Shown here: in pieces, positions 1 to 18,779 of the stretch
Layout: each line of letters starts with the position of its first letter
How positions within the stretch are numbered: position 1 is the stretch's first letter
Assembly (NCBI GenBank): GCA_030834985.1
Contig: JAUQWV010000003.1
Coordinates: 656 to 64,655, forward strand
DNA length: 64,000 bases
Reading direction: 5' to 3'
From: Candidatus Dojkabacteria bacterium
Lineage (GTDB): Bacteria > Patescibacteriota > Dojkabacteria > J137
The notes under the pieces: model-generated
Seen by the model: the letters and a program-made list of their open reading frames with translations, nothing else
The model's database searches: none
What the model was told of the DNA's origin: nothing
Translations under genes and position numbers: made by a program

Positions 1-467
1 AAAATTACAGAAGGATTTTAAAAGTTCGAAGCCAGGCAAAGTATAGGCACTTTATGCTTTTAATTGAAAGTATACTTTCAAGCGAAAATATCTCTAAAAA
101 AGAATTCAACCGAAGATTAAGACATATGTTTGACCTCTATCATCACGATGTATTGGCCTTATCCATACTTGCAGACATTAAAAGAAAAGAAAAAGAACTG
201 CATGCACATAGGTTAATAAAGCATACTCCAAAGACTACTAATTTAATTGAAAGCTTTAATTCACAGCTTGAAGCCAGACTGGTTTCTATCCGTAGCTTTC
301 AGAGTTATGAACACGCAAGGTTATGGTTAAATGGGTATGTTTTAAAAAGAAGATTTACAAAATTTACCGACTGTAAAGGTAAATTTAAGAATTTAAATGG
401 AAAAAAACCTGTAGAAATCACATTACGAGAAGATAGGGTTTTAACCCCAATTTTTAAGAAAATATAG
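1..467 (+). CDS. DDE transposase, C-terminal part (IS256/ISL3-like); reading frame open to the 5' window edge, so partial
   Basis: TTNLIESFNSQLEARL and SFQSYEHARLWL match the conserved C-terminal motifs of mutator/ISL3 transposases. The frame stays open upstream to position 1. Confidence 0.6.
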   Translation, partial: NYRRILKVRSQAKYRHFMLLIESILSSENISKKEFNRRLRHMFDLYHHDVLALSILADIKRKEKELHAHRLIKHTPKTTNLIESFNSQLEARLVSIRSFQSYEHARLWLNGYVLKRRFTKFTDCKGKFKNLNGKKPVEITLREDRVLTPIFKKI

Positions 468-3400
468 CGGGCAACTGTCAGAAATGGTACACTGCCAATT
501 ATACTGACCATTTGCATTAGTAATTGCAGCACCTAATTGCCTACCTGACTCTCTTTCAAATACCCTTACAAATATTCCACTTAGCTTAGTTCCTGATTGA
601 CGATCATATACACTCCCTGTCTTATTCCTGCGAATAAAGTAGTACACTACAACTTGAATAATAAAAATAAATAATATTACTAAATTTACCAAATTCGGTG
701 CAATTACAAGTGTAATAATGGAGAATATTAAACCGATAAAGAAAATCAAGGAGTTAATCTTGAATAAATTTTCTTTAAACCATCTTTTTACTTCATAAAA
801 TTTGTTTTCTTTAGAATCTAAAGCTGTCATAGGTATCTCTAAGTTAAACGTATCGCCCTCTAACTTAACCCTCAATTGAAATTCTTTATAGCCATTGACT
901 TTTGCAATTACAAAATATTCCCCAGGAGTTGTAACAATAGAATATTTACCATTTAGATCGCTTATCTCTTCTGTTACAAACTTTCCTGATAATTCAAGTA
1001 ACCTTACAGTAACAAATGGAATCGGTTTATTAGTTAGACCGTCAAATACAAGACCCCACGAAAGTTGTTTCTTTCTTTTTCTAAACCATACAAATGCATA
1101 CAACACAGAATTAGGATAACTTGCTGCCGTAAGTACAGTAGCTGCAGTTGTTGTTGCTACAAGGGCAGCTGGAAGCTGCCCTGATTTTGCAGTTGTTGAG
1201 ATAGCGTCTGTTACAGAATTTACGATATTTAACAACTGCGCTTCAAGAGTATTATTTCCAGCATCCCTATCGGTACCCAATAATTCATCCAGCTCATCAT
1301 CCATTTCACTAACTGGCAGTTTTGATGGGGAGTTTGGATCTGTTGGATCGGTAGGATCAAACTTTTGAGTACTACATACAATTGTTCCAATTCTAAAATA
1401 ACATCCATAAACTTCTTCTCCATCAAGAAGCCCATCATCATCTGTATTAGCGTTATTCGGATCTGTTATAGGAAAGGTAGTATCAGAGCATTCTGTAGTA
1501 TTTTTTATAAATAAACAGCCTTTAACTTCCTCACCATCAAGCAGTCCATCATTATCTGAATCGCTATCATTCGGATCAGTTCCCAAAGTTGCTTCCTCTT
1601 TATCGGTTAAGCCGTCTTTGTCTGAATCGATATCCTCATCTTCTGTATCGCTCTCTTCATTATTATCCTGACTGCTTCCGGTTGGCTGATTTACAATTAT
1701 TGTTAAAGACTTTTCTAAGCTCCCATACGGTCCATTTCCAAATATTGTATAAACCGTTGTTGTAGTTGGAGCAACAATAGTTGAGCCAGAAAAGGTATTA
1801 AGTGTTCCCACTCCTCTATTTATATTTAACGAAGTTAAATTCGAAGCATTCCATGTTAATGTAACAGATTCACCTAAATTAATTGTATATCTATTTGCAG
1901 TAAATGTTATTGCAGGAACAGGATCAGGAATACTTTCAACTACACTAATTATGTTAGAAAAATAAGTTTCCTCTTCGTAAGTTGAGGTAATTACAAAAGA
2001 ACCTAGATTAGAAATCGATGCATTATTTAGTGTTGCTTCTCCATTAACTAAGTTAACAGAATTTATATTCATCCACGATGTTCTATTAGTGGAAGTTGCA
2101 CTATCAATTAAGCTTATTGATAATGTTCCATTATAATCAGTATTTGTAAATCCTAATTCATCTACTACTTTTATAGTCAAAGCAAAATTCTCAAGTGGAT
2201 TCACTTCATTCGGAAGTACATTTATACTTAATGAATAATTATTTTTTGCTTGCTCTTCGTCTTGGTATGCTCCAAATGCAAGTGTATATGAATCAAGAAC
2301 TGGAGTTGAATTATTTACCTGATTCATTTCGATTTTAAACTTTACTTTGTAATCATTCTGATTAACATTTAATATTTCTGCCAATGTGATCGGGTGCCAT
2401 GTGATACCATCGTCAACCGATACCGAGTAATAAACAGCGTTGCTTCCTGCTTGCGCATGTACTGTTGGGAATAACAAATCCTGTAATTTATTAAAGATGG
2501 TGTTACTTGGTTCGATTTGCTCAGCAACAATTATGTTACTAATTCTTTTAATCTCTTTAAGTTCAAAAAAGTTTGCAAATAATCTGTCTTCCGGTGTTGA
2601 ATAAACAACAGCCTGGCCATCATCTTCCCATCCACGGTTAAGATCATATTTTTGGAATCCGTCTACATCGCCATTTACATACAATGTATTGTAGTCTTTA
2701 ACGATTAGATTAGCGCTTCCTCTGTATGCATAATTTGTATCAACCCCTCGGTTGTTGGTTGTAATTTTTAATCTTATATAAGTATCGTCTAGTAAATCAG
2801 TGTAGGTGTCATTAAAGTTCAAATAGTAAGCGTCTCCCAGTTCTCCGCCTAAGAATAATTGATCTCCTACTCCGTTCTGACCTTCAACATACACAATATC
2901 GTATACATTCAAATTTTTTATTTGAGTTGAATCAGCTAATTTTAATACAGTATCATCGGATGCATTGTTTGGAGTTGTATGAGGATCCAAAACAACATAC
3001 AATCCTCCTGTTTGGTTGAACCCTGCCATTCCGACTAAAAGATATCCATTAGGATCTACCAGCATTGAAAATACATTTCCATTATTTTCAAATTGAGCAT
3101 TACTATATTGAGTTAACACATCATCTGAAAAATCTAAAGGAGTATTATTATCATTTAATCGATCCATTCCAAATCCATATCTAGAAATATATAAATGGTT
3201 GCGAGGGGCATCTAAATATAACTCTACTCCACTTCCTAATGGAGCTGAAGTGACATTAGTAAAAGTATCATCAGAAGTATCTGTTAAAGTTCCGTTTAAA
3301 TTTAAATACCGTAGATTTCCATTAATCAGTATATATGCTCCTAACCTTCCTCTTTGGCTATCGGGTAGTATTGCACCAGTTCCACCGGTATTAATTTGTA

Positions 3401-6400
3401 TAGCTGTATTATCTGTCAAATTATATATTTGTATTTTACCTCCATCTGCAACCCATAAGTAAGTCTTTCCATTTAGCTGTACTGCTTCAATACTTCGAAT
3501 TGGAGCACCTAGATTCGCCAATCCCCATGAAGTAGGGTTAAGCGGTGTAACTTGATCAGTAGAAATGTTGTAACTAACTATTTCTCCGGTTCTGGAATAC
3601 CATATTCTATTTGCATTTCCAGGATCCGACTTTATTAAATACATATTATAAGCAGTATTTACATACTTTGTTGGATAATTGGTAGTATCAATTGATGTTC
3701 TAGTAGTTGTAATCGTTTCTCTTAATCTCAATTTTCCATTACCCCATATTAGGTTAGATTCAGATAACACATGATTAGTATGATCTTCAAAGTCTTCAGT
3801 CTCTGTAATTAATTCAGGATCTACGTTTACGGGGGATATAATGTTAAATTCATCACTTTCTGTCGATGTGTGTCCTGCATCGTCATCGCATTCGACTTCT
3901 ATTGTATGAGCCCCATTACTGATCTCTGGTAAATCAAAAGAGTACTTTTCTACTGAATTACCAAAACCTCCATCAAGCGGAGTTATATTCTCCCAAGAAC
4001 CTCCATCTAAGCTGTACCTTAAACTGGTAATTACTGAGTTAGTATCATAAAGGCTATTATCCGCACAACTTCCTGTAATACTTGGAGTAGAATCCATAAT
4101 AGGATCAGGCCTTACAGGTTCAAGAAACAATGTTGGAGGCGTGTTATCTTCAGCTTCTAAGGTAAAGAAGTCGCTGCCTACGTAAGTTGCACCGTTACCG
4201 GCAATATCGATTGGATTTAGCCTTACAAAAATAATTCCATCCGGCAAATCTATTGGGATTGTAAATGTAATAACTTCATGCGTATCACCTAATGAACCAT
4301 CTTGTGCCACGGTTTCAGGAAGCATATCATTGTAGAGTACATCATACAAATTATCTCTTGTTACTATTAGTTGTAGTTCAGCAATACCGCTGTCATCCTG
4401 ACACTCAATATTGCTGTAAGTAACCTGGTTTGAATAGACAACTGATTCCTGACTTACCAGGTTACAGAAAGGTCTTTCGTAATCATCAATATAACCGACA
4501 TAATTAAAAGTAAAGGATTCGGTTGTAGATTTACCGGATTCATCATATGCAGTAAATGAAACAATATTACTACCTAATTCTAATTCTTCAATATAAAGCC
4601 AAAAGTATTTATAATCATGATCACCTTCTATCTCTAACATTTCGGGATCACCATCGTTAATCTGATATTCTGCATAATCTACAGCTACATCATCAATAAT
4701 ATAACCTTCAAATTCAATGCTGTTCGATTCAATAGTACCAGGAGCCAATATAAATTCAAATTCTGGAGGATCGATATCTTCAGACGGGCCTCCTCCCTCT
4801 GGCACATAAGTATAGCTATTAGGAGACAATGCAGGTCCATCAGCTCTTACCGCTACTGCAACAGCTGTATAGTTTTTAACATCTTCATTTGAGTACCATT
4901 CTAACGTTGAACTGTAATCAAAAGCCGCATTAAACGCGTATCCCGACCCGTTCCAAGACTGAATATATTCTCCATATGTTGGAGTTAACACAACATTCGA
5001 ATCTGTATAAACAGCACCTATAACAAGGTCCTTACTTTTTGCATTTGTATCTACAGAAAAGTTGGATGTATTAGCATCTCCCGAAGATGCACATCCATAA
5101 TCAGTAAACCTAAAACCTTGGTTAGCATTTGATAACGCAACTGCTGTTAAAGTTAAGTCACGGATATTTGATTTATTACCTGAAAAGTTAAAGCCCAATT
5201 CTAAAGTTCTTTCTACACCAAGATTATGACTGTAGTACCATACTTCTGTAACCATGGAATATGGTTCTGGAATATTTTCTAATATTGGAAAACATTTAGG
5301 ATATCCTCTAGATGAATATGGCATAAGTTGCGCGAAGCTTTCTTCTTCTTCATCAGTATCTATAGAAGATAAACGATTTCCCGCACCACCATAAGCCTTA
5401 TACGAAGCAAATAACAGAACTACATCAGTATCTTCTTCCACACCAATAGCTAGCTCAGCCTCAGTAGCATCATCAAATTTACCGACTGCACCATTAGTTA
5501 CTGTTGGACTTACAGCTTCTGAATACTCTTCAAAATCTTCCGTAAATACTTTTATTTCATAATCTACAGGATCACTTAAGTAATAATCTGTGTATACTTG
5601 TATGTCGTAAGTTCCCTCTTCAGGATCTTCCAATACAACAGATTTATAGAAAGTACTCAAATTATTATCGGATGCAACTAACATATAATCCCAATTACCA
5701 GCCTCAAGCATTAAATCATTAACATCAGCATCCTGAGTAATTAGACTTACTATTAATCTCTTTGCATTCCCGTCATAATAGAATGAATGCCCGTTAAAAT
5801 CTGAATCTAGAGTATCTGTAACTGTATAAATGTCTGTTGAACTAGAACCTTCTTCAAGCTCATAATAAACTAAAACTTTGTATCCTCCACCAGAAGCTGA
5901 ATATAGATCAAAAATCCAATCCTGATACATAACACCCATAGAGCTGTTTACTTCCATATATTTTCCATCCTCAGGGTAGTAAGTCATGTCGCAAAAGTAT
6001 TTTCCACACAAACCTCCAAGTTCTACATCAGAGTCACCTAAAACACTTACTATTACATTCTTAACATTTTGGGGCGTAGAAAAACTAAATTCCTTAAAAT
6101 TATCATAATCAAATTGTCCCACTTCAGATAAAACTGTATTTGGAGGATCTTCATAATAAGAACTTGAAATATAGTCTACTGAAACCGAAAAATCCCCTCC
6201 AATATCAGAACCACCATATGGATAATATACGTCAAAATACCAAGTTCCTTCATAAGGATAGTCTATTGTGAACTCTTCGTAATTTGTATCTCTTTCTTCA
6301 GAATAATAACTAAAGGACATCTCAGAATGAGTTATATCGAATAAATCGAAATCTGTTCCTTCTTCACCCTGCATTGTTATAGTTACAGACTCTACATTCG

Positions 6401-6590
6401 CTGGTAGGTTAAATGAAAATGGAGTACTTTCATCTTGAAAAGATAAGCTTCCCACCGCAGTAAGAGCGTTGTCAGCCTTTACAGGATTGCATACTGATGC
6501 AATAAAAGGGATAGACACTATAATCAGGAAAATATGAAAAACTCCAAGACCTACAATTAGAAGTCTTTTGTTATTATTTTTCATAGACAA
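441..6590 (-). CDS. Giant secreted surface protein (2049 aa). It has PPC-like and Ig-like domains, thrombospondin type-3-like Ca-binding repeats (DxDxDGLxDxEE), and a C-terminal module of TM helices alternating with CarboxypepD_reg-like domains.
   Basis: Long ORF with an N-terminal signal anchor, DSDKDGLTDKEE/DSDNDGLLDGEEV repeats, and a hydrophobic C-terminal region of TM, beta-sandwich, 2TM, beta-sandwich. The 3' end overlaps the transposase ORF. Confidence 0.8.
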   Translation of the reverse strand: MSMKNNNKRLLIVGLGVFHIFLIIVSIPFIASVCNPVKADNALTAVGSLSFQDESTPFSFNLPANVESVTITMQGEEGTDFDLFDITHSEMSFSYYSEERDTNYEEFTIDYPYEGTWYFDVYYPYGGSDIGGDFSVSVDYISSSYYEDPPNTVLSEVGQFDYDNFKEFSFSTPQNVKNVIVSVLGDSDVELGGLCGKYFCDMTYYPEDGKYMEVNSSMGVMYQDWIFDLYSASGGGYKVLVYYELEEGSSSTDIYTVTDTLDSDFNGHSFYYDGNAKRLIVSLITQDADVNDLMLEAGNWDYMLVASDNNLSTFYKSVVLEDPEEGTYDIQVYTDYYLSDPVDYEIKVFTEDFEEYSEAVSPTVTNGAVGKFDDATEAELAIGVEEDTDVVLLFASYKAYGGAGNRLSSIDTDEEEESFAQLMPYSSRGYPKCFPILENIPEPYSMVTEVWYYSHNLGVERTLELGFNFSGNKSNIRDLTLTAVALSNANQGFRFTDYGCASSGDANTSNFSVDTNAKSKDLVIGAVYTDSNVVLTPTYGEYIQSWNGSGYAFNAAFDYSSTLEWYSNEDVKNYTAVAVAVRADGPALSPNSYTYVPEGGGPSEDIDPPEFEFILAPGTIESNSIEFEGYIIDDVAVDYAEYQINDGDPEMLEIEGDHDYKYFWLYIEELELGSNIVSFTAYDESGKSTTESFTFNYVGYIDDYERPFCNLVSQESVVYSNQVTYSNIECQDDSGIAELQLIVTRDNLYDVLYNDMLPETVAQDGSLGDTHEVITFTIPIDLPDGIIFVRLNPIDIAGNGATYVGSDFFTLEAEDNTPPTLFLEPVRPDPIMDSTPSITGSCADNSLYDTNSVITSLRYSLDGGSWENITPLDGGFGNSVEKYSFDLPEISNGAHTIEVECDDDAGHTSTESDEFNIISPVNVDPELITETEDFEDHTNHVLSESNLIWGNGKLRLRETITTTRTSIDTTNYPTKYVNTAYNMYLIKSDPGNANRIWYSRTGEIVSYNISTDQVTPLNPTSWGLANLGAPIRSIEAVQLNGKTYLWVADGGKIQIYNLTDNTAIQINTGGTGAILPDSQRGRLGAYILINGNLRYLNLNGTLTDTSDDTFTNVTSAPLGSGVELYLDAPRNHLYISRYGFGMDRLNDNNTPLDFSDDVLTQYSNAQFENNGNVFSMLVDPNGYLLVGMAGFNQTGGLYVVLDPHTTPNNASDDTVLKLADSTQIKNLNVYDIVYVEGQNGVGDQLFLGGELGDAYYLNFNDTYTDLLDDTYIRLKITTNNRGVDTNYAYRGSANLIVKDYNTLYVNGDVDGFQKYDLNRGWEDDGQAVVYSTPEDRLFANFFELKEIKRISNIIVAEQIEPSNTIFNKLQDLLFPTVHAQAGSNAVYYSVSVDDGITWHPITLAEILNVNQNDYKVKFKIEMNQVNNSTPVLDSYTLAFGAYQDEEQAKNNYSLSINVLPNEVNPLENFALTIKVVDELGFTNTDYNGTLSISLIDSATSTNRTSWMNINSVNLVNGEATLNNASISNLGSFVITSTYEEETYFSNIISVVESIPDPVPAITFTANRYTINLGESVTLTWNASNLTSLNINRGVGTLNTFSGSTIVAPTTTTVYTIFGNGPYGSLEKSLTIIVNQPTGSSQDNNEESDTEDEDIDSDKDGLTDKEEATLGTDPNDSDSDNDGLLDGEEVKGCLFIKNTTECSDTTFPITDPNNANTDDDGLLDGEEVYGCYFRIGTIVCSTQKFDPTDPTDPNSPSKLPVSEMDDELDELLGTDRDAGNNTLEAQLLNIVNSVTDAISTTAKSGQLPAALVATTTAATVLTAASYPNSVLYAFVWFRKRKKQLSWGLVFDGLTNKPIPFVTVRLLELSGKFVTEEISDLNGKYSIVTTPGEYFVIAKVNGYKEFQLRVKLEGDTFNLEIPMTALDSKENKFYEVKRWFKENLFKINSLIFFIGLIFSIITLVIAPNLVNLVILFIFIIQVVVYYFIRRNKTGSVYDRQSGTKLSGIFVRVFERESGRQLGAAITNANGQYNWQCTISDSCPLYFLKNWG

Positions 6591-6780
6591 AAAAGGAAAG
6601 ATATCTATAAATGCACTATATACTTGAAATTGGAAGATTGCAATGTTTTTATAAAAAATTCTATCCGCTATAACCTAAAACTGGAAATAGTTATAGGATT
6701 TGCAGGCGAAAGTGTTGACCTGGATTTGAACGTGATATATTCTTACTTATAATGGTAATTTAAATTTTTAATCTCTAAGT

Positions 6781-6948
6781 ATGAAGAAAGGTAAAATTAT
6801 CTTCAAAGGTAGCTTCTGGGACTACTTTATTAAGTTTCTCGGTTTATCAGTGTTAACCGTTATTACTTTAGGATTGTTGCTTCCTTACCTTGTCTATTGG
6901 CAGGTTAAATATTTCGTAGATAATCTAGAGCTTGAGATATACGGCTAA
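6781..6948 (+). CDS. 55-aa membrane peptide resembling a single DUF898/YjgN repeat unit
   Basis: Translation is MKKGKIIFKGSFWDYFIKFLGLSVLTVITLGLLLPYLVYWQVKYFVDNLELEIYG. The F-x-GS-x-W-x-YF ... TLG-x-x-x-P-x-x-x-x-W motif is typical of DUF898. It is below the ORF-track length cutoff. Confidence 0.35.
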   Translation: MKKGKIIFKGSFWDYFIKFLGLSVLTVITLGLLLPYLVYWQVKYFVDNLELEIYG

Positions 6949-6991
6949 TTGTATTGTTTTAAAAGAAAGAAATGGTACACTGCCTAAATAA

Positions 6992-7067
6992 TGGGGTAGC
7001 TGGAGGGACTTGAACCCTCGACACCCGCTTCCACAGAGCGGTGCTCTACCACTGAGCTACAGCCACC
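6992..7067 (-). tRNA. tRNA-His (anticodon GTG) with an encoded G-1 and no encoded CCA after discriminator C73
   Basis: Reverse complement folds as a cloverleaf. The acceptor is GTGGCTG/CAGCTAC, the D-arm is GCTCAGTGGTAGAGC, the anticodon loop is CTGTGGA, and the T-loop is GGTTCAAGTCC. Confidence 0.85.
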
Positions 7068-7106
7068 ATACATGACGCGACTATTATACCATCTGAATAA
7101 TGTTTA

Positions 7107-7974: not shown

Positions 7975-8001
7975 GGTCGCCCCGACTTGTTAAGTCGGGG
8001 C
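7975..8001 (-). terminator. GC-rich hairpin (ccccgactt gtt aagtcgggg) downstream of the 261-aa gene
   Basis: Perfect 9-10 bp inverted repeat immediately 3' of the stop on the minus strand. Confidence 0.45.
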
Positions 8002-8775
8002 TCCAACTGGAGATTGCGGGCGCAAAAGTACAATGTACCGCGCCCATATATACCAACTATCACGAGTATCCGGTGTATAAGGGCCCCACCCGCAGAATGC
8101 CATGATGACATACTGATCGGGAGAATCCATAGCATCCTGCCACACTTCGGCGTTTTCAAGGTCAAAAGCTTGCGCCAGACCTAGAATGTTCCGTGTGTTT
8201 GTTGAGTAAGCAGGAACGCCACTTGGATCGATGTAAGCGATCGCTGCTACATCGAACCGTAAGTCTACTGCCGGATTGCTCTGGCTGCCTTCTTCGCGGA
8301 TTCGCATGGTGTGATTCTGGCTTACGAACTCTGCAGTATTCTCGCGAATCCGCTCGTAGTTCGCGTCCAATTCCTCATTGGACATTGCTCTTTCCGGCCA
8401 AAGACCGGATTCAAATTCATGACGGAACTCCTCCCCTTCGAGAGGTGCACCACCGAATATACCAGAGTGTACAATCAAAAATGGGTTGCCCCAATCTTCT
8501 ATTGTCACAACTCCGGTATGCTGTCCTGGTTGAAAACGCCGATCACGAATATCCTCTAAGCTTACCTCACCCCCGTATATTACAGGAGTGAAGGTATGCC
8601 CCCAAAGCCGCGCACCGCTTGCGTTGTACACGCTGAATGTGATCGGCATTTCCCACCCATAACCCAGATCATTTTTTTGTTCTGGATCAGGAGTGGCTTC
8701 AGGCTCTTGAGCGCTAACCGTTAAGCTAGCAAGGGTTAAGAGGATTACAAACAGCAGAACTGCTATCGCTTTCAT
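7990..8775 (-). CDS. Secreted hypothetical protein (261 aa) in GC-elevated island 1
   Basis: Signal peptide MKAIAVLLFVILLTLASLTVSAQE. RBS-like gaaagg lies upstream. Composition is distinct from flanking genes. Confidence 0.7.
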   Translation of the reverse strand: MKAIAVLLFVILLTLASLTVSAQEPEATPDPEQKNDLGYGWEMPITFSVYNASGARLWGHTFTPVIYGGEVSLEDIRDRRFQPGQHTGVVTIEDWGNPFLIVHSGIFGGAPLEGEEFRHEFESGLWPERAMSNEELDANYERIRENTAEFVSQNHTMRIREEGSQSNPAVDLRFDVAAIAYIDPSGVPAYSTNTRNILGLAQAFDLENAEVWQDAMDSPDQYVIMAFCGWGPYTPDTRDSWYIWARYIVLLRPQSPVGAPT

Positions 8776-8805
8776 TTCAAACCTTTCGGTCTAGTCCAGA
8801 AATAC

Positions 8806-8832
8806 TTCGCCCCCCAGTTACGGGGGGCGAGT
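8806..8832 (-). terminator. GC hairpin (cgcccccc agttac ggggggcg) downstream of the 685-aa gene
   Basis: 8-bp G/C stem about 20 nt after the stop of the upstream minus-strand gene. Confidence 0.45.
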
Positions 8833-8850
8833 TAACTGGACGATTATAGG

Positions 8851-10908
8851 TTAGGCTGTCTTGACAGCGCGGCGGCGGGTTATTGCAACTGCGCCTACGA
8901 TGAGCGCACCACCGACGATCACTATACCGGACGGGAAACTGCTAGCTTCACCCGGACGCTCAGGCGAACCCGACTCCGGTGCCGGTTGAGGCGTTGGCGC
9001 GGGATCATCTGCGCGAACCGAGCAAACGCCGGGCTGGACATAGTCTAGCACCACAAATACTGCGCCATTGCCTCCTACCACACGGAATGGACCGTAGTAA
9101 TAGTCGGCATTGGCATTCTTGTGAATGCTAACTTCCCAGCCGCTGGTTTTCTGCTCCTGCTGGGGAACCCAGGCGTCCCACTCGCCCCATTCCTGTCCAT
9201 CCCAGCGCTGTACATACAGTGGCTCGGGTAGCGGATTGGGGAGGTACGCCAAGCATACAAACTGCGGACCGGGTAGCGGAGGCGGAGGTGGCGGTAACGT
9301 CACCGTAGCCGTGGGGACCGGATCGGTGGGGGTCGACGTTGGCTCAAACGGCTCACAGCTAGCGCTCGCCGTCCATGTAAAGTCGGGCGACAAACCGGGT
9401 GCCGTTACGGTCACTCCCTGACCGTTCGGAACAGCTCCCAAATCCATCGTATCTGTTGCTCCGGCCGCGACATTCCGCGTCGCGTTCACGAAGCCCGTTA
9501 CGGTAAACGTTACCGGCTGGTTAGAACCGGTATTATCGAACGTCAGTACTGCGGGAACAGCGCTTTCGCTTCCGTTCCAAACGCACTCGCCGACACTCAC
9601 ACTGACTGCTGGACCGAAAACATCCGGCGGGCAATTTGCTGCCGCCGTCCACGTAAAGTCAGGCGACAAACCGGTTGCTGTTACAGTTACGCTTTGACCG
9701 TTCGGGACTAGCCCTAGGTCAAGCGAATCCGTTACACCGGCTGCGACATTCCGTGTCGCATTTACGAAGCCCGTTACGGTGAATGTCACCGGTTGGTTCG
9801 ATGCCGTGTTGTTGAATATGAGTAGGGCTGGCGATTTGCTTTCGCCTGCGTCGTACACACACTCGCCGACGTTCACACTCACTTGCGGAGCGTAAACGTC
9901 GGGAACACAGCTAGCGCTTGCCGTCCACGTAAAATCGGGCGATAAGCCCGGTGCTGTTACAGTCACGCTTGCACCATTTGGGACTAGCCCCAGGTCCAGT
10001 GTGTCTGTTGCTCCGGCCGCGACATTCCGCGTCGCGTTGGCGTAGCCTGATACTGTGAACGTCACTGGTTGGTTCGACGCGGTGTTGTCGAATGTGAGCA
10101 CGGCTGGCACTTTACTTGCGCCAGCATCGTACATACACTCTCCCACGTTTACACTCACTTGCGGAGCGTAGACATCCGGGATGCAATTGGTATCGACGGT
10201 GAACGTTACTGGCAAGAGATACCAGTTTTGCTCTGCGCCGAGCTGTAGCTTGTACATGATAGTCACTGATCCCCCGTTATAGTCCTCGGGGAATGTTAGC
10301 GGAACGTTCACCGTGCTGAACACGGGAACGTTGACGATACTGTAAATCGGTCCGAATGGCTGCCCAGCGTATGGTCCCTGCGAAATCGTGCCAGGGAACG
10401 ATGGATGGCTTTCGTACGTCGGGGCTTGATCTCCCACCCGGTAGTCCCACGCGAATGCAAAGCGCGTGGAGTTGTTGAAGGTGAGTGTGGCGCCGCCACA
10501 CGTTGCCGTGTGAGACATGGTGGGCGGTGTACTCGGGAATGCGGTGTAGCTTCCGTTGCTGTCGCAGTCGGCGGAGGCGTCAAGCCTCCATGTGAACGCA
10601 CCAGTTGGCGGCACAGTAACATTTCCTACCGTTACCCAATCGGTGCCGGCCGGCAGTTGAGGGACGGGAAACGTCCCCTGACTGACGTTGTTTATGTACA
10701 CGACCACGTTTTGCGCGGCTTCGGTTGCGCCACTCAGATTGCGATAGCGCACCAAACCCTGTTGTGTAACTTCACCGTAGTAGCCGTTCGTGGCATTACA
10801 GTACCACGCTTGGACCGCTCCTTGCGGCGCGGCGAAGAAAGCCAACGCACCGATGAAGAGCGCTAGCCCCAACAAAGACCGCAGTAAGTAACTTAACCGC
10901 TGTTTCAT
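8851..10908 (-). CDS. Surface-anchored protein (about 685 aa) with three tandem ~92-aa Ig-like repeats, a Pro-rich stalk and a C-terminal TM anchor. It lies in the high-GC island.
   Basis: The start is set at ATG 10908 (MKQRLSYLLRSLLGLALF signal peptide), which is preceded by the strong SD GGAGGG. The ORF-track start at 11004 looks like a spurious extension. Three near-identical CxPDVYAPQVSVNVGEC...DFTWTASAS units. C-terminus is GIVIVGGALIVGAVAITRRRAVKTA. Confidence 0.75.
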   Translation of the reverse strand: MKQRLSYLLRSLLGLALFIGALAFFAAPQGAVQAWYCNATNGYYGEVTQQGLVRYRNLSGATEAAQNVVVYINNVSQGTFPVPQLPAGTDWVTVGNVTVPPTGAFTWRLDASADCDSNGSYTAFPSTPPTMSHTATCGGATLTFNNSTRFAFAWDYRVGDQAPTYESHPSFPGTISQGPYAGQPFGPIYSIVNVPVFSTVNVPLTFPEDYNGGSVTIMYKLQLGAEQNWYLLPVTFTVDTNCIPDVYAPQVSVNVGECMYDAGASKVPAVLTFDNTASNQPVTFTVSGYANATRNVAAGATDTLDLGLVPNGASVTVTAPGLSPDFTWTASASCVPDVYAPQVSVNVGECVYDAGESKSPALLIFNNTASNQPVTFTVTGFVNATRNVAAGVTDSLDLGLVPNGQSVTVTATGLSPDFTWTAAANCPPDVFGPAVSVSVGECVWNGSESAVPAVLTFDNTGSNQPVTFTVTGFVNATRNVAAGATDTMDLGAVPNGQGVTVTAPGLSPDFTWTASASCEPFEPTSTPTDPVPTATVTLPPPPPPLPGPQFVCLAYLPNPLPEPLYVQRWDGQEWGEWDAWVPQQEQKTSGWEVSIHKNANADYYYGPFRVVGGNGAVFVVLDYVQPGVCSVRADDPAPTPQPAPESGSPERPGEASSFPSGIVIVGGALIVGAVAITRRRAVKTA
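9358..10185. repeat. Three tandem ~276-bp coding repeats (about 80-90% identity) inside the 685-aa gene
   Basis: Repeated DNA blocks, e.g. ccgtccacgtaaa(g/a)tc(g/a)ggcga(c/t)aa(a/g)cc(g/c)ggt. The protein repeats are at aa 274-549 of the ORF-track numbering. Confidence 0.7.
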
Positions 10909-11171
10909 TGTGATCCCTCCTAGGATCGAGAACCGAAAGTGGGTACGATGGTGGCAGCAGTTGAACTGCTTCGACCGCACTGGGAACCTAATCGATAGAT
11001 TCACAAAACGGTCGAAGCAGCAGCTTAACCTAAATTATTAATTAATCTCCAGTTGTTAAAGAACTTTTGCAGGGCTTTAAGCCACTGCTCATTTTCTAAA
11101 ACTCAATAGAGATAAAGATATCATCTAAATGGTTTTATACCGGAATTATAGCAAAATATATTACAAATATA

Positions 11172-12479: not shown

Positions 12480-12518
12480 ACTATAAAATAATAACTGCTT
12501 ATTTAATAAATTTCTACC

Positions 12519-14888
12519 TTAAAAATTCTGCATCCAATTTATGGCCAGAATACTTAAGTCAGAAATATTTGTTATACCATCATTGTTAGCATCTGCTGTA
12601 TTGTTTGATTGATTCCAGTAAGTTGCTAGTATACTTAAATCAGATAAATTTACGGCACTATCTAAATTGAAGTCCCCTTTAGTTTTTAAAAAATATTGCT
12701 GAGCATTTATTTGAAATGTTGTTGTAACTTCACGATAATTTCCTACATTATCAAATGCTCTAACTGTTGCAGAGTGAGTTCCGTCTCCTAAAGCAGAAGT
12801 TGTGTATGGGGAAGTAACAGTACTAAAACTTCCTCCATTAATAGAGATTTGGTAGTGCGACATGCCAGATAACGAATCAGTTGTAGAAAAGCTCAATATG
12901 GCAGTCGCACTCAAACTTGTTTTCCCGATTGTAAAATTATTTGGAATAATTTTATCGATTCTTAAATTTCTATTAGATGATAATGTAGTGTTGCCTGCTA
13001 CATCTGTTGCCCTAACTCTCCATTGTTTATTGCCGCTTGGTATTGCCGATGGTGCAGTATGCGAAATTGCTGACAGGTCAGAATATGTTTCAACAGAATC
13101 TATAAGGATATCGTATGTTACTGGACCATTTGCATCAGTAGATGCCTGCCAAGTAAACTCCGGTAAATCATTATTAGTCCAATCAGTTGTCGGACCTGTT
13201 AAATTAAATACCGATGGAGGTGTATTATCTATAATTAATTCTAGAGTATCAGGATCAGATCGGTTTCCATTAAAGTCTTCTGCAATAAGATTAGCCATAT
13301 ATGTTCCATCAGGTTGATCGATATCTAAATCTATTAATGTTGTATTTGATTTATTGCCACGTCCGGTATACATATACGTTGTAGCATCGGGTCCAACTAT
13401 TGAGAAACTAATATAATATGCGTACAAATTTGTAGAGTTAACTGAGCCATTAAGCGCAATATTTCCTTTAAATAAATTGCTTGGAGGTTCTGTAAATGTT
13501 GCGGTTGGAGTTGCGCTGCCTAGTGCTGGGTCAGATAAAGATAGCGCGTTCAGCGCATTAAGTCTGCCAAATCCATACAAGGTGTCGTAACCAGCCGTAC
13601 CTTTATCTTCTGCAGTTGAAAGCAGCGCTTTTCGGATCTCATAATAACCCCAAGGGGTTATATCTTCTGAATGAAGGCTGTACAAAAGCGCTGCTACACC
13701 CGATACATGGGGCGCGGCCATTGATGTACCGCTAAAGCAGCCATATTTTACCGCGCCCACACATCCACTAGTAGGATTCTGCTTTGTCGTTAAAACTCCT
13801 TGTCCTGGAGCAATAATATCAGTTGCTAATCCAAAATTAGAAAATCCGCTACTAAAAACATCATTGTGATTAGCAGCATTTACAGTAATTACATTCTGTA
13901 AACCTGCAGGAGAATAAAATGATGAATCAGTGCTATCGTTACCAGAAGATGCCACCACTGTAATATCATTTTCTACTGCATAGTTAACTGCATCCTGCGT
14001 AACTTGCGAAAAGCCAGGTCCTCCAAGGCTTAAATTGATAATATTTGCACCGTTATCAACTGCGTATTCAATAGCTTCTGCCACAATCGGATCTGCAGTA
14101 CTATTTACTGCTCCAAAAACTTTTAAAACCATTATCTTGCATCCCCAGCAGACACTTGCAATGCCAGTTACATTGTTTGAATTGGCTGCAGCAATTCCTG
14201 CTGTGTAAGTTCCATGGCTTAATTGTTCTTGAATATTTGTAAAGTCGCTAGGATTACAGCCTGGCAGTGGTGTAGGTACACAGAGCGATTTTGCATAAAA
14301 GTTAAAACCGTTAATATCATCTATGTAGCCGTTGTTATCATCATCTACACCGGTTGCTCCATTCGCTTCAATAGTATTTATCCATAATTTATTAGTAAAT
14401 TCCGGATGAGTTAAATCTATCCCTGAATCTACAATTGCAATAATTGTATTTGTTGAACCTGTTTCGATTTCCCAACCTGAAAGGCCACCTGGCGGGTCAG
14501 TAACAGGATTTAGCCCTATTTTTCTTAAACTCCACTGATCGTACTGACCCGCCAAAAAAGTTCCTTGCGAAGCATAGTACTGGTCATCTGGATTAAGCAT
14601 TAATGAATATTCAACAATTGGAGTAACTGTTTCTACCAAAGGATTATTTATTATATTTGTATATTCATTTTTATCTGTAACATTTACTTTACTCCATTTA
14701 CTAAGTTCCTTTGATTTTGACCGACTATTAAAGCCATACTTTCCTGTATTTTTGTACTTAATAAGAAACTCACCTGATTTATACTCATTTGATTCAGCTG
14801 AAATTTGAAAGTTAGCCGCAAAAGAAGATACTAAAAAAACAAGCAGTAAAACTAAAAACGTAGTAGTAGATTTACGTAAATACATCAC
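12519..14888 (-). CDS. Subtilisin-like serine protease (peptidase S8) with FN3/Ig-like domains and a C-terminal type-I dockerin
   Basis: Catalytic triad motifs are AIVDSGID (Asp), HGTYTAG (His) and GTSMAAPHVSG (Ser). Two Ca-binding dockerin segments are present: DFNLDSAVNLSDLSILA and DANNDGITNISDLSILA. Confidence 0.85.
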   Translation of the reverse strand: MMYLRKSTTTFLVLLLVFLVSSFAANFQISAESNEYKSGEFLIKYKNTGKYGFNSRSKSKELSKWSKVNVTDKNEYTNIINNPLVETVTPIVEYSLMLNPDDQYYASQGTFLAGQYDQWSLRKIGLNPVTDPPGGLSGWEIETGSTNTIIAIVDSGIDLTHPEFTNKLWINTIEANGATGVDDDNNGYIDDINGFNFYAKSLCVPTPLPGCNPSDFTNIQEQLSHGTYTAGIAAANSNNVTGIASVCWGCKIMVLKVFGAVNSTADPIVAEAIEYAVDNGANIINLSLGGPGFSQVTQDAVNYAVENDITVVASSGNDSTDSSFYSPAGLQNVITVNAANHNDVFSSGFSNFGLATDIIAPGQGVLTTKQNPTSGCVGAVKYGCFSGTSMAAPHVSGVAALLYSLHSEDITPWGYYEIRKALLSTAEDKGTAGYDTLYGFGRLNALNALSLSDPALGSATPTATFTEPPSNLFKGNIALNGSVNSTNLYAYYISFSIVGPDATTYMYTGRGNKSNTTLIDLDIDQPDGTYMANLIAEDFNGNRSDPDTLELIIDNTPPSVFNLTGPTTDWTNNDLPEFTWQASTDANGPVTYDILIDSVETYSDLSAISHTAPSAIPSGNKQWRVRATDVAGNTTLSSNRNLRIDKIIPNNFTIGKTSLSATAILSFSTTDSLSGMSHYQISINGGSFSTVTSPYTTSALGDGTHSATVRAFDNVGNYREVTTTFQINAQQYFLKTKGDFNLDSAVNLSDLSILATYWNQSNNTADANNDGITNISDLSILAINWMQNF

Positions 14889-14922
14889 TTAACAATATAT
14901 ACTGTATGAAACTTCAAGGCAA

Positions 14923-15168
14923 TTATTGAGTACTGCCATCTATGCAAGCCATTTCTGTACAAATAACTTCACCTTGTGAACAGCTGCAGGTATTGCAGTT
15001 ATCTATACTTAAAAAGGACTCTCCATCTTGATAAGTCTTTCCATCGTATAGACATTGAAGACTATGATTTAAATTATTGATAGTAAAAATAGTTGTAAGT
15101 ACTGCGAGAATACAAATAACTACAGAAGCTAATAGCAAAAATATTTTCAGATTTTTATTGTTAATCAT
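14923..15168 (-). CDS. Small (81 aa) membrane-anchored Cys-rich protein with a VWC-like (von Willebrand type C) cysteine pattern
   Basis: N-terminal TM, then CLYDGKTYQDGESFLSIDNCNTCSCSQGEVICTEMAC. The C-x-x-C-x-C ... C spacing resembles VWC/TIL-like modules. Confidence 0.5.
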   Translation of the reverse strand: MINNKNLKIFLLLASVVICILAVLTTIFTINNLNHSLQCLYDGKTYQDGESFLSIDNCNTCSCSQGEVICTEMACIDGSTQ

Positions 15169-15197
15169 TGTCTAGAGTATAGCGTAAAAAAACCTAA

Positions 15198-18100
15198 TCA
15201 CAAAGGTGCCAATTTGCTTAACACAATGTTTTTATTTATATATCCATTCTTTTTAATTTCAACAGGAACAATTTTTAACATGTTTTCATCTTTTGTACCG
15301 TATTTCATGTTGTAGCCTTTTTTATCAACTACGACATAATAATTGCCATGGTCTAAATCTAAGCTAACTTCACCTTTTTTATTTGTTGCAGCAATATCTA
15401 CTAGTTGGGCATCTTCATCGTAAGCTCTTAATACTGCACCTGCAATGCCTGAGTTAGTAGATTCATCAAGTACTTTATTTTTCTTTAAGAAGAACTGATA
15501 AAGCTTAGGGTAAGCAACAGTAATAAATATTAAGCTATAGATTATTAACAACAATACATTTTGCAAAGATGAATTTGCTACTTGATTGTAAATTGTATTT
15601 AAGAAACCAATAGCTGAAGCAACAAGTACAACTAAATTAAATAAGTTAAAGATTTGTGTTTTAGGTAAAGTTAAAACTTTTTTAGGTGTTAAATATACAT
15701 CATAAATTTGATTATCAAATTTAGATACTGCTTCATTTCTATCTAAAAACCTTAGATATTTATCGTAGCCAGCTGCTTGGACTTCTATAAACATATTTTC
15801 TTTTTGCTCTGAATCTAATCTATATTTACCGCCTAAATCAGTTAGTGTTCTCGCAACTACTGAGGTTTTAACTTTATTATTATCGATTGTTTCTTTTCTC
15901 AATAAGGTAACTATTGCTAGACTTACAGGAGCACCTGTTTGTTCATTTAAAACTATTCCCCAATATTCATTATCTAATGATTTAAAATAGCCAATAATTG
16001 CACTTATAGCTTTAACAGGATTTAGTAAAAGTAAGATCAACAAAGTACCAAGAGCTAAAAGCAATAAAGCAAGGAATATAAGAATTAGTGGGCCCTGTGA
16101 TTGAATAAACACTACACTACCTAAAACTGATCTTAAGAAACTTTGTATAATTGATGAACCAGAATCTACAATTGCAGGAACAAGTTCTTGTATCTCTGTT
16201 GTATCGTTTATAAATACAGAGGAACCATTCGGCTTATTAGTTACTGATGTATTTTTAATAGTGGTATTAGTTGTTGTTTGATTTGTAGTAGTATTTTGCG
16301 TACCACCGCCACCTCCACCAGGTCCACCGTTACCACCACCATTACCGTTGCCGTTACCATTCCCATTTCCTGGGTCATCGTCGTCGTCATCTTCTTCTCC
16401 AAAAGGGTGTTCATAAATCATTATTTTTCCGCGGTTTGTATCGTAAACATACAAATTATCGCCTTCATCAAAAGTCATAGCAAAAGGCCAGCCGTAAAAG
16501 TCTTCAAGTTGACCATCTGCAACTGCATACGCAGGATCTGATCTATTTGAAGGATTAAATTCAGTAGGGTCTTCAAAATACTCGATAAATCTTGGTCCAC
16601 TATATGGGTTGTACCCGGTAACCATTCTATTTTCGCTATCAAATGCGGTTTCAAAAGTAGATGGCGCAAAACCTGTAATTGGGTTAACTCGTGGGAATTC
16701 TTTAGCAGCTGATAATCCAAACACAACAGATTCTGGTGATGCTGGGAAAGAACTTGCAGCAAACATTAGGAGTCTCCAATTACCATCAATCTCAAAAAAA
16801 TGATCTGATACAAATAAATTACCATTATTATCTAAGGATAATGCACCAGGTAAACAAAGCATTGATCTATCGGCAGATTGACTGCCGTCTACGTTTGGCG
16901 GCGGCACAACTCCTCTGTTGCACTGAGTACCACCTAAACTAGTTTGCCCAAGCATAATATCAACAACTGGGTCTGTTAATGGATTTCGTATTCTGAATAC
17001 GCGATGATAATCGGTATTAGCAACCCAAAGATATTGGCCATCAGGTGACGGAGCAAGTCCTCCAAATGTATCTGCGACATTAACTGTGCCGCCGCCAGCA
17101 GCATTAAATGGACCTGTTAGTGTAACAAGTGGTTCTGACTCTTCTGTTAATGGAGTTTCAAAAATATCTATATGTCTTTCATAAATCGAAGATCTTACAA
17201 CATATATATGACCGCTTTTATCGGCTTTTAGTACGTTGTATCCAGGCTGTCCATCTAAAGGAAGTGCGCCATCTTCATAAGTTACAAAACCGTCTGCAAC
17301 TTTGCCGTTTGTAATACTCGATAAATCGTTCCAGAACATTAATCTTCCATCTGTTGCTATTAGCTGATCATCCACAACTGCTACTCCACCCCAACCGCCT
17401 TGTTCAAACCTATCAGGACTTGTTAAGTTGTATCCTCCGGGTAGAGAAAATAGACTCATGTCTGGTAAGTAATCACCTTCACCATTATCAAAAGAAAATC
17501 TTGCAACATCCTGCTGATATACATAAGCTGAAACTAAGATGTTCCCTTCAGTATCTATACCAACTGAACCACCTCCAGGATTCCAGTTAGTAAAATGATG
17601 TCCTTCTGATACGCCGTCTAGATCCCAATCTCTAAAACCTGCGCCTGCACCCTCATTTTCATATGTCCAAAAAATATTTCCACTAGGATCCATTTCAATT
17701 GCTACCAAACCATCTGGGAAATCACTATCATCAAGAATCGCAGTACCGCTCATACCGGAGGTAAAGGGTGCTGTGTATCGCATTACTCTATTATTACCAG
17801 CATCGGCGATAAGTAGATCTCCAGTTGAACCAAATCTTACTGCAGTAGGACTTTTTAAGTTAGTTGTCGAAGAACCCGATGCTGCCGAGGTAAAATTTGC
17901 TTGTCCAATCACAATATCTGCCGTTTTAGCTATTACACCGTCATTATTTGGAAACCTTAATACGCGGTTGTTTCCACCGTCAGCTACCCAAAGGTTTCCA
18001 TCAGCATCAAGCGCTACTCCAGCACCTCCATCAAAAGTTGAATAAAAACATATCGAAGAAGCAGTTGGTGCAGGTGTACTTTGGTTATAGCCTCTAGTTA

Positions 18101-18779
18101 AATTGCATTTATTCCCAGTAAAATTTACCTGTCCCCAAACTTCATCTGCAATTGAATCAGTAGTAAACGGATTAATATATTTTAAAACTCTGTGATTTTC
18201 AAAATCACCTACATATAGATTACCATCATCATCTACAAACATACTTGTGAATGTTTTATGCTCTAAAGATGTATGTGTCCACTCTGGAATTCCACAGATC
18301 GTTTCTGCGCCAGCTGGAGCTCTTTCTGGATAATATTGAAAACTTGAATCTCGATTACATGCACCCCAATCCGTTGCCGAAGGCTGACCTATTACAATAT
18401 CTGCAGCACATCGTTCTTCTTCATCTTTGAGATAACAATCTTCTAAATCAATTCCTATAATTCTACTGTTTCCAGAATCCCATACGTAAGCTCTCCCAGG
18501 ACTCTCTGATCTATCAACAATAACTCCTCCCGGTGATGAAACTTTATCTAGAACTATTTTACGCGGGGCAATTTCCCCGAAGTCCCTTTTTCCTAAAACT
18601 ATATCTGCCCATAAATCATTTGCTTCTCCACGTACTGCCCCGCCTTCAGCAGCACCAATATATGCTGCATACCAACTAGCAAAAAAATTACCTGATACAA
18701 AAAGAAAGACCAACAATATTGCTAAAACAGAAACTTGTCTTTGAGTTTTTGTAGCTCTAAATTTCTCTCTGCCTAACAC
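15198..18779 (-). CDS. Large (1193 aa) surface protein with NHL-repeat beta-propeller(s), an acidic/Gly-Asn low-complexity linker, and the same C-terminal TM/CarboxypepD_reg-like module as the 2049-aa protein
   Basis: GNNRVLRF, AGNNRVMRY and HRVFRI are NHL repeat signatures. DDDDDDPGNGNGNGNGNGGGNGG is the linker. The C-terminus has 3 TM helices interleaved with two GxxxGxYxL/AxGY beta-sandwich motifs. Confidence 0.8.
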   Translation of the reverse strand: MLGREKFRATKTQRQVSVLAILLVFLFVSGNFFASWYAAYIGAAEGGAVRGEANDLWADIVLGKRDFGEIAPRKIVLDKVSSPGGVIVDRSESPGRAYVWDSGNSRIIGIDLEDCYLKDEEERCAADIVIGQPSATDWGACNRDSSFQYYPERAPAGAETICGIPEWTHTSLEHKTFTSMFVDDDGNLYVGDFENHRVLKYINPFTTDSIADEVWGQVNFTGNKCNLTRGYNQSTPAPTASSICFYSTFDGGAGVALDADGNLWVADGGNNRVLRFPNNDGVIAKTADIVIGQANFTSAASGSSTTNLKSPTAVRFGSTGDLLIADAGNNRVMRYTAPFTSGMSGTAILDDSDFPDGLVAIEMDPSGNIFWTYENEGAGAGFRDWDLDGVSEGHHFTNWNPGGGSVGIDTEGNILVSAYVYQQDVARFSFDNGEGDYLPDMSLFSLPGGYNLTSPDRFEQGGWGGVAVVDDQLIATDGRLMFWNDLSSITNGKVADGFVTYEDGALPLDGQPGYNVLKADKSGHIYVVRSSIYERHIDIFETPLTEESEPLVTLTGPFNAAGGGTVNVADTFGGLAPSPDGQYLWVANTDYHRVFRIRNPLTDPVVDIMLGQTSLGGTQCNRGVVPPPNVDGSQSADRSMLCLPGALSLDNNGNLFVSDHFFEIDGNWRLLMFAASSFPASPESVVFGLSAAKEFPRVNPITGFAPSTFETAFDSENRMVTGYNPYSGPRFIEYFEDPTEFNPSNRSDPAYAVADGQLEDFYGWPFAMTFDEGDNLYVYDTNRGKIMIYEHPFGEEDDDDDDPGNGNGNGNGNGGGNGGPGGGGGGTQNTTTNQTTTNTTIKNTSVTNKPNGSSVFINDTTEIQELVPAIVDSGSSIIQSFLRSVLGSVVFIQSQGPLILIFLALLLLALGTLLILLLLNPVKAISAIIGYFKSLDNEYWGIVLNEQTGAPVSLAIVTLLRKETIDNNKVKTSVVARTLTDLGGKYRLDSEQKENMFIEVQAAGYDKYLRFLDRNEAVSKFDNQIYDVYLTPKKVLTLPKTQIFNLFNLVVLVASAIGFLNTIYNQVANSSLQNVLLLIIYSLIFITVAYPKLYQFFLKKNKVLDESTNSGIAGAVLRAYDEDAQLVDIAATNKKGEVSLDLDHGNYYVVVDKKGYNMKYGTKDENMLKIVPVEIKKNGYINKNIVLSKLAPL

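Follow-up and report, generated by a model that had tools for sequence, protein, structure and literature searches.

Contig JAUQWV010000003.1 of a Candidatus Dojkabacteria genome assembly (GCA_030834985.1) was analyzed over a stretch of 64,000 nucleotides, hereafter the window, which has a guanine plus cytosine (GC) content of ∼34% and is a bacterial chromosome segment encoding SecY, EF-Tu, EF-G and DnaG. The EF-Tu and SecY sequences match exactly those deposited for Candidatus Dojkabacteria bacterium (WS6), a lineage of the CPR/Patescibacteria. Two of its open reading frames (ORFs), gene A (2049 amino acids) and gene B (1193 amino acids), encode large predicted surface proteins that end in the same tail of ∼300 residues. 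Judging from sequence and predicted structure, this tail is a self-contained C-terminal membrane module with an undescribed architecture made of familiar components: three transmembrane (TM) helices interleaved with two beta-sandwiches, here called D1 and D2. The module has a fixed order of elements, conserved positions, an extreme C-terminal location and a modular distribution, and its beta-sandwiches are CarboxypepD_reg domains. Coordinates of all features are shown in Table 1.

An earlier note on this DNA had proposed that the two proteins carry unrelated ectodomains but the same tail, in the order TM helix, beta-sandwich, two TM helices, beta-sandwich, and our analysis agrees with it in these respects. 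The last 290-340 residues of A and B are colinear over 291 residues with 22% identity (BLASTP, E=9e-10), and no significant similarity was observed between the two ectodomains (best BLASTP E=0.034). In both tails TM1 is followed by a basic cluster, D1, a TM2-TM3 hairpin and D2. Hydropathy analysis and an AlphaFold2 model of the B tail, built from a 35-sequence family alignment, placed TM helices between the sandwiches; the model consists of helix, helix, beta-sandwich, two long helices and beta-sandwich, with a predicted local distance difference test score (pLDDT) of 83 and a predicted template modelling score (pTM) of 0.69. An A-type tail was modelled with the same element order at lower scores (pLDDT 77, pTM 0.39) and with a poorly defined TM1. 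Both sandwiches are complete in B; in A the second one ends after ∼40 residues, and the claim of two sandwiches in both proteins therefore holds in full for B only.

The carboxypeptidase-regulatory/transthyretin-like fold that had been suggested for the sandwiches is well supported. Both proteins scored above the gathering cut-off of PF13620 (32.3 bits) with two stretches each (A, 45.4 bits; B, 46.9 bits), the same model matched all 35 aligned family members, and D1 of B contains a CarbopepD_reg_2 match at residues 976-1008 (Pfam). Foldseek searches with the modelled sandwiches returned two structures of the carboxypeptidase D transthyretin-like domain, 1qmu_A (root-mean-square deviation 2.9 over 90 columns) and 5aq0_B (TMt 0.78), as well as 8bdw CnaB2 and SdrD B. 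Profile comparison further showed homology between the two sandwiches, D1 and D2 (hhalign probability 99.6%, E=4.9e-24).

To examine the occurrence of the tail, a two-tail HMMER profile was run on 1.84 billion protein cluster representatives, which yielded 3042, 1049 and 36 matches at E≤1e-3, E≤1e-10 and E≤1e-30, respectively. All family statistics below on carriers and tails were drawn from the best 150 of the 1049 matches. Almost all of these (147 of 150) showed one full-length match, covering approximately profile positions 30-348 and ending a few tens of residues (mostly <50) before the C-terminus, behind many unrelated or unannotated ectodomains. At least 145 protein clusters other than A and B end in this tail. 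The carriers were 255-4044 amino acids long (median 1262), 81 of them having at least 1000 and 30 at least 2000 residues; the ectodomains sampled were mostly unannotated, with occasional TSP3 or NosD/beta-helix regions, and an N-terminal hydrophobic export signal was found in 85 of 145. About a dozen were stand-alone proteins of 377-442 amino acids, composed of a signal peptide or anchor, 40-90 residues predicted to be external, and the module. The idea that the tail is a device of giant adhesins was thus too narrow, as proteins of only ∼380-440 amino acids carry it too.

The tails formed a continuum, 132 of the 147 being linked at ≥35% identity. Conserved positions (B numbering) included W940 (93%) and G941 (100%) at the start of D1, G1058 in TM2 (94%) and N1074 and Y1081 in TM3 (90% each), together with the G/Y strand motifs of both sandwiches. 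After D2, 89 of the 147 tails (∼60%; for example, P0001-P0013) had a short aromatic motif near the C-terminus, either NPF(S), another PF or KFG[FY]M. It is a possible short linear motif, located on the side predicted to face the cytoplasm; B lacks it.

These data leave a close to negligible chance that there is no real module, that is, that hydrophobic composition and a very common beta-sandwich domain were mistaken for one. It is true that phmmer searches with each tail against all ORFs of the window recovered only the query's own protein and missed the other tail, that a word-indexed protein search gave no match with the B tail alone and only two with the 35-sequence family alignment, and that the remaining 3 of the 150 best matches were multi-repeat CarboxypepD_reg proteins without the module. 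The failure of the word-indexed search was probably due to a candidate list saturated by low-complexity and giant proteins. Against such a reading stand the 147 single, full-length, colinear and C-terminal matches, the conserved spacing and conserved positions outside the sandwiches (WG, the TM2 Gly and the TM3 Asn/Tyr), and the orthologs in other genomes that retain the module. A hidden Markov model (HMM) built from the 147 tails found exactly two copies in the window, in genes A and B. Chance similarity was refuted by the profile search, the colinear matches, the conserved positions and this tail HMM taken together.

No curated family was found to cover the module, in line with its proposed novelty. 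No Pfam or NCBIfam model spans it as a whole, scans of 35 members matching beta-sandwich families only; no PDB entry spans TM1 to D2, sequence profile and Foldseek searches giving single-domain matches only (TMq ≤0.24); and no published description was found in the literature on the candidate phyla radiation (CPR), Patescibacteria, Saccharibacteria or Dojkabacteria. The Vampirococcus paper noted membrane-located giant proteins and the Pam pilus preprint described single-TM chaperones, both unrelated to the module. In the clusters looked up, NCBI names for module proteins were only 'hypothetical protein'.

All named source organisms were CPR/Patescibacteria. They comprised Dojkabacteria/WS6 (the window, OLB20, another metagenome-assembled genome (MAG) and proteins HLD03205/HLD03568), two 'Saccharibacteria' MAGs and Patescibacteria bacterium BroJett037. 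The suggestion that the module is lineage-specific is consistent with these sources, but its exclusivity to CPR is not established because the named sample was small and the genome scan, which used the A-type tail alignment and yielded five loci, was biased to A-type tails. A scan of viral contigs revealed no relatives of the module.

CPR bacteria are ultra-small, and every cultivated member grows in attachment to another microbe. Host recognition is most likely to be the task of their large surface proteins, almost all of which are annotated as 'hypothetical'. One tail HMM could catalogue much of the anchored surface proteome encoded by a CPR genome, including its most variable ectodomains, and the module provides a concrete, testable unit of three helices and two beta-sandwiches in ∼300 residues.

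The distribution of charges points to the orientation of the tail. Among the 147 tails, the flank before TM1 was acidic, whereas the 12 residues after it, just before WG, contained on average 4.1 Lys+Arg and 0.3 Asp+Glu. The stretch before TM2 contained a mean of 5.7 Lys+Arg, the TM2-TM3 loop (mean length 6 residues) only 0.12, and the 9 residues after TM3 2.6. In all 138 of 138 tails Lys+Arg on the predicted inside exceeded those on the predicted outside, with a mean excess of 6.9 and a minimum of 2. In B, one basic patch lies between the juxtamembrane helix and D1 and another between TM3 and D2. The best hydropathy window of TM1 reached at least 1.5 in 131 of the 147 tails. Because the turn between TM2 and TM3 has only 3-6 residues (3 in the AlphaFold2 model of B), D1 and D2 must share one side of the membrane and, given an exported ectodomain, this side would be the cytoplasm. 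In addition, Cys accounted for 1.16% of residues in the ectodomains versus 0.12% in the tails, with <0.1 Cys per sandwich. On the basis of charge bias, connectivity and Cys depletion, we infer with fair confidence that both beta-sandwiches are cytoplasmic and sit directly under the membrane, and that they are therefore no part of the surface-exposed structure. Such a location is unusual for the CarboxypepD_reg/transthyretin-like fold. If true, it would be one of the few instances in which a transthyretin-like/CnaB-type fold works intracellularly, directly beneath the membrane, and a candidate link from surface adhesion to the cytoplasm in a group whose cell biology is still poorly known.

Our favored explanation, which we hold to be somewhat probable, is that the tail is a modular three-helix membrane anchor whose cytoplasmic pair of beta-sandwiches provides a stopper or a platform for docking or clustering. 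The N-terminal signal would send the ectodomain through Sec until TM1 stops the transfer and leaves the RKRKK-type cluster inside the cell. D1 would then fold directly beneath the membrane, TM2 and TM3 would insert as a tight hairpin that adds membrane grip, and D2 would fold on the same cytoplasmic face. The two folded 'buttons' might resist pulling through the membrane and so hold large surface proteins, and the cytoplasmic face would probably also serve self-association, clustering or the docking of partners. Anchoring together with docking is put forward here as a hypothesis for the function of the tail, which looks like a widely reused tie between surface proteins and the cell interior. 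The same window encodes a 911-residue surface protein that ends in a sortase-type signal; the module would therefore be a parallel anchoring solution, and the organism appears to have at least two of them.

Several points weigh against this explanation. The topology is a prediction from connectivity, Cys content and the positive-inside rule. Characterized CarboxypepD_reg/CnaB-like domains are almost always extracytoplasmic, although the transthyretin-fold hydroxyisourate hydrolases are soluble intracellular enzymes. The A-type TM1 is weakly hydrophobic (1.38) and of low confidence in the AlphaFold2 model. Sixteen of 145 relatives, none of them in the window, begin with a REC-like domain where a signal peptide would be expected (P0015, P0020, P0038, P0047, P0049, P0052, P0056, P0057, P0069, P0093, P0102, P0124, P0128, P0136, P0139 and P0148; a further giant of this type is the 2838-residue gene at L003:1-6671), followed by two hydrophobic segments at approximately residues 170-250. 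If both of these segments span the membrane, the REC domain and D2 cannot both be cytoplasmic, because the number of segments is then five and odd; the count fits only if the first of the two fails to span. All-against-all comparison of neighboring genes revealed no partner that accompanies the module everywhere, only lineage-restricted companions, namely a small VWC-like protein and a family of ∼155 residues. A truncated allele of gene A (see below) persists in several assemblies, so that A is either a pseudogene or able to do without D2 in some of its roles. Finally, a single TM helix already anchors a protein, and anchoring alone does not account for the fact that D1, D2 and the polar residues of the hairpin are conserved.

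One rival is an extracytoplasmic stalk. Either TM1 would fail to cross the membrane or the orientation would be reversed, D1 and D2 would form a wall-proximal pedestal on the outer face, and the TM2-TM3 hairpin would be the sole part to enter the membrane. The fold is typically extracellular, with Foldseek/PDB matches to pilins, SdrD B, CnaB and the transthyretin-like domain of carboxypeptidase D; the A-type TM1 is Ala/Thr-rich as well as weakly hydrophobic; and the five hydrophobic segments of the REC-type relatives would set D2 opposite the REC domain. However, this arrangement is contradicted by the positive-inside rule in 138 of 138 tails, which have ∼7 more Lys+Arg by D1/D2 and an uncharged hairpin loop, by the strongly hydrophobic TM1 of most members and by the near absence of Cys from D1 and D2 but not from the ectodomains. 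We consider a stalk of this kind rather improbable.

The last of the points raised against the anchor makes transmembrane coupling or signaling a live alternative, since anchoring alone accounts neither for the conservation of D1, D2 and the hairpin nor for the stand-alone forms. Here the cytoplasmic pair of sandwiches would bind a partner and report inward, or control the ectodomain in an integrin-like manner. The conserved domains and polar hairpin residues exceed the needs of an anchor, stand-alone forms have tiny ectodomains, and more than half of the tails end in the short PF/NPF or KFG[FY]M motif. A soluble-looking family of ∼155 residues without Pfam match is divergently transcribed just upstream of B-type module genes and adjoins them in four loci from other assemblies; it is possibly a cytoplasmic partner or merely conserved synteny. 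On the other hand, no homolog of it was found in the window, B lacks the C-terminal motif, and output domains such as a kinase or cyclase are absent from the module. The signaling role raised in the earlier note was only hinted at by the REC-like domain that replaces the signal peptide. For four of these relatives PF00072 scored 20.1, 24.5, 28.4 and 30.9 bits against a cut-off of 30.2 bits, which are marginal matches; a DD and a central D are visible in the sequences, and the topology of such proteins does not add up if all five hydrophobic segments span the membrane. On balance, coupling or signaling seems unlikely. Its boldest form, a CPR-wide integrin-like device whose cytoplasmic pair docks a partner and transmits host contact made by a giant surface protein or switches adhesion from inside, is slightly more doubtful; it would mean an unrecognized class of bacterial transmembrane receptor derived from a fold otherwise used outside the cell. 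Candidate partners would be the REC-like domain, the 155-residue protein or a reader of the NPF/KFGFM motif.

[quoted passage not shown] Like sortase signals and single-pass anchors, the tail occupies the C-terminal position of very diverse exported proteins and has a hydrophobic helix followed by an RKRKK-like cluster, and in A-type tails this helix begins with an LP motif ('G-x-LP-x-AL'), so that the whole recalls the tripartite sortase signal. Nevertheless, the corresponding segments are GQLPAALV in A and SQGPLILI in B, neither of them LPXTG, and B-type tails lack the LP motif. A sortase-type protein end is also absent, as ∼210 residues (in the truncated A) or ∼270 residues (in B) follow the basic cluster; without LPXTG and with ∼270 further residues, the module is not a sortase signal. 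These ∼270 residues are conserved and include two more TM helices, and we know of no sorting signal with such a long conserved continuation past the basic cluster. Stand-alone proteins that are little more than the module, and the sortase-type signal of normal form elsewhere in the window, argue in the same direction. The T9SS C-terminal domain (TIGR04183, Por_Secre_tail) matched neither A nor B and only weakly 3 of 35 relatives, in which the matches fall on a beta-sandwich, and the module does not count as a T9SS C-terminal domain; T9SS belongs to diderm Bacteroidota. A sorting signal is thus very unlikely.

Among known systems, D1 and D2 belong by sequence and fold to the CarboxypepD_reg/transthyretin-like domains (PF13620, PF13715; relatives CnaB, SdrD_B and PEGA). 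As accessory domains, the known examples occur in extracellular, periplasmic or lumenal settings, and the Pfam models cover the sandwiches only; in the module a pair of them alternates with three TM helices and is predicted to be cytoplasmic. NOMO (BOS complex), EMC7 and FAM171 showed weak sequence or fold matches to D1/D2 and also have a beta-sandwich directly beside a membrane helix, but their sandwiches are lumenal or extracellular, precede a single TM helix and do not alternate with a hairpin; there is no evidence of common descent with the module beyond the domain superfamily. DUF2207 proteins (PF09972 and PF20990) resemble the carriers in having an exported N-terminal beta-rich domain and a multi-helix membrane region, but have no beta-sandwiches between the helices, and the A hairpin matched DUF2207_C at E=0.34 and 11 bits only, far below the cut-off of 33 bits. 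By analogy only, integrins and Mycoplasma cytadhesins (P1) share a large ectodomain, a near-C-terminal membrane passage and a cytoplasmic portion with the potential to connect to internal components; their tails are short or unstructured and single-pass, with no sequence or fold relation to the module, for which such coupling is hypothetical.

The copy of the module in gene A is damaged, most of the predicted D2 being missing. It covers positions 8-263 of the 335-position tail HMM, whereas all other copies reach ∼332. Residues 1-2031 are 56.6% identical to a 2086-residue ortholog from Patescibacteria bacterium BroJett037, which runs 70 residues further, and P0194 (2082 residues, 63% identical to A) likewise extends past the break. 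Compared with P0194, P0001 and the L005 ortholog, homology stops at '...NANGQYN', at approximately window position 498, and is followed by 18 unrelated codons. D2 is reduced to a stub because the gene is cut at approximately position 497, beside a transposase-like fragment. A frameshift concealing the rest of D2 was rejected, as the other two downstream frames contain no D2-like sequence and the homology stops abruptly. An identical truncated allele (P0193, 2047 residues) is present in an NCBI assembly on a 226.5-kb contig, and the truncation is thus not an artefact of a single assembly.

The transposase-like ORF that converges on the 3' end of A matched the IS256 transposase model NF033543 with 21.1 bits, well short of its cut-off of 150 and over profile positions 287-334 of 338 only, and Pfam rve_3 with E=0.017. 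Since no second copy of this DNA or protein was found in the window or in the compared loci from other assemblies, its label as an insertion sequence is tentative. In BroJett037 the A ortholog sits between homologs of the 183- and 197-residue genes of the window, with the B ortholog a few kb on. The different gene order shows that A was relocated, and its 3' end lies at a rearrangement breakpoint.

Both proteins begin with a basic N-terminus and a hydrophobic core of the kind seen in Sec export signals. With respect to the ectodomains, the TSP3-type repeats near the end of that of A were its only family assignment, with no strong match elsewhere in Pfam; the repeat region matched PF18884 at E=2.4e-05 and 24.5 bits, slightly below the 25-bit cut-off, and CglD weakly. 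B is a clear NHL protein (PF01436, three stretches with 67.9 bits, the cut-off being 20) that also exceeds the TEN_NHL cut-off (29.9 versus 27.1 bits). The B sequence recurs in other assemblies, where close cluster members are titled 'hypothetical protein [Candidatus Dojkabacteria bacterium]'.

Table 1 Features of the window and of loci from other assemblies
Feature	Position	Strand	Basis or remark
Gene A, 2049-residue ORF	441..6590	-	N-terminal signal peptide/anchor, large ectodomain, TSP3 repeats, truncated tail module
A residues 1-41, export signal	6468..6590	-	Hydrophobic core (hydropathy 2.61 at 10-28) behind a basic N-terminus; ...VKA/DN
A residues 1643-1753, TSP3 repeats of the bacterial, Ca-binding type with acidic linker ahead of the tail	1332..1664	-	PF18884
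A residues 1766-1805, conserved pre-TM segment	1176..1295	-	Start of BLASTP tail alignment with B
A TM1, residues 1806-1836, weakly hydrophobic	1083..1175	-	LPAALVATTTAATVLTAASYPNSVLYAFVWF; Kyte-Doolittle maximum 1.38 (15-residue window)
A basic cluster RKRKK, residues 1837-1841	1068..1082	-	Sequence; stop-transfer on predicted cytoplasmic side
A D1, residues 1845-1921, CarboxypepD_reg/transthyretin-like beta-sandwich	828..1058	-	PF13620 at 1846-1921
A TM2, residues 1945-1964	699..758	-	Hydropathy 2.5-3.0
A TM3, residues 1967-1986	633..692	-	Hydropathy 2.4-2.75; 2 residues after TM2
A D2 stub, residues 1992-2031	498..617	-	Family HMM coverage; first two strands of second beta-sandwich only
A residues 2032-2049 and stop codon	441..497	-	Non-homologous read-through past breakpoint; no similarity beyond '...GQYN'
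Transposase-like C-terminal fragment, 137 residues	54..467	+	Converges on and overlaps 3' end of A; weak matches only
Gene B, 1193-residue ORF	15198..18779	-	Signal peptide/anchor, NHL beta-propeller ectodomain, low-complexity linker, complete tail module
B residues 1-47, export signal or anchor	18639..18779	-	Basic N-terminus and hydrophobic core; hydropathy 2.41 at 16-34
B residues 169-305, best NHL/teneurin-NHL region	17865..18275	-	PF01436 E=4.4e-19; PF25021 E=3.7e-07
B residues 795-856, Asp/Gly/Asn/Thr low-complexity linker	16212..16397	-	Sequence; EEDDDDDDPGNGNGNG...TTTNQTTTNTT...
B residues 862-896, pre-TM segment			
B TM1, residues 897-919	16023..16091	-	Hydropathy ∼3.0; AlphaFold2 helix 41-63 of tail model
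B juxtamembrane helix, residues 921-933	15981..16019	-	AlphaFold2 helix 65-77; after family-majority Pro
B D1, residues 940-1030, transthyretin-like beta-sandwich from WG motif	15690..15962	-	AlphaFold2 strands 85-174, pLDDT ∼90
B TM2, residues 1040-1068	15576..15662	-	AlphaFold2 helix 184-212; hydropathy (∼1042-1060); contains G1058
B TM3, residues 1072-1097	15489..15566	-	AlphaFold2 helix 216-241; hydropathy (∼1072-1092); contains N1074, Y1081
B D2, residues 1101-1189, second CarboxypepD_reg beta-sandwich, complete	15213..15479	-	PF13620 at 1103-1157; AlphaFold2 strands 245-333, pLDDT ∼90
Exported protein, 261 residues	7990..8775	-	No Pfam match; within GC island
Exported protein, 717 residues	8851..11004	-	No Pfam match; within GC island
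Subtilase (Peptidase_S8), secreted	12519..14888	-	Big_13 domain, C-terminal type I dockerin; two genes downstream of B, directly after pacifastin-like protein
VWC/pacifastin-like protein, 81 residues	14923..15168	-	N-terminal TM helix and Cys-rich domain; directly downstream of B
PATR-repeat surface protein, 911 residues	41170..43905	-	Ends LSETG, hydrophobic stretch/TM, KYKRKRRK (sortase-type signal)
DUF2207 membrane protein	44639..46633	+	N- and C-terminal DUF2207 domains (PF09972 and PF20990)
∼155-residue family, other assemblies	L004:9128-9616, L005:9656-10159, L010:414-890, L011:6378-6854, L013:631-1290	-	

Module-bearing genes tend to cluster. A 361-residue CarboxypepD_reg protein (L012:1889-2974) lies directly upstream of the 2525-residue P0005 (L012:3031-10608), fragments whose match to the tail HMM is confined to its D2 end were found upstream of the stand-alone P0019 (L011:5886-6323 and L010:3-359), and the orthologs of A and B are neighbors in L004 and L005. 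A homolog of the 81-residue VWC-like protein (51% identity) lies directly downstream of P0019 in two other assemblies (L010:2235-2732 and L011:8199-8696), and none was found beside the B-like genes of L012 or L013. Pacifastins are serine-protease inhibitors, and the pacifastin-like protein could therefore form a protease/inhibitor pair with the neighboring subtilase.

Between the two module genes, the window contains a GC island of 50-60% at ∼8000-10950, compared with 34% for the genome, which could be either a horizontal acquisition or an assembly chimera. The 717-residue protein of this island has three tandem repeats of 276 bp (9354..10179) and a C-terminal TM helix followed by RRRAVKTA, and a tRNA-His gene is located close to the island, at 6992..7066. 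The DUF2207 gene is the sole long plus-strand ORF listed amid the surrounding minus-strand ORFs.

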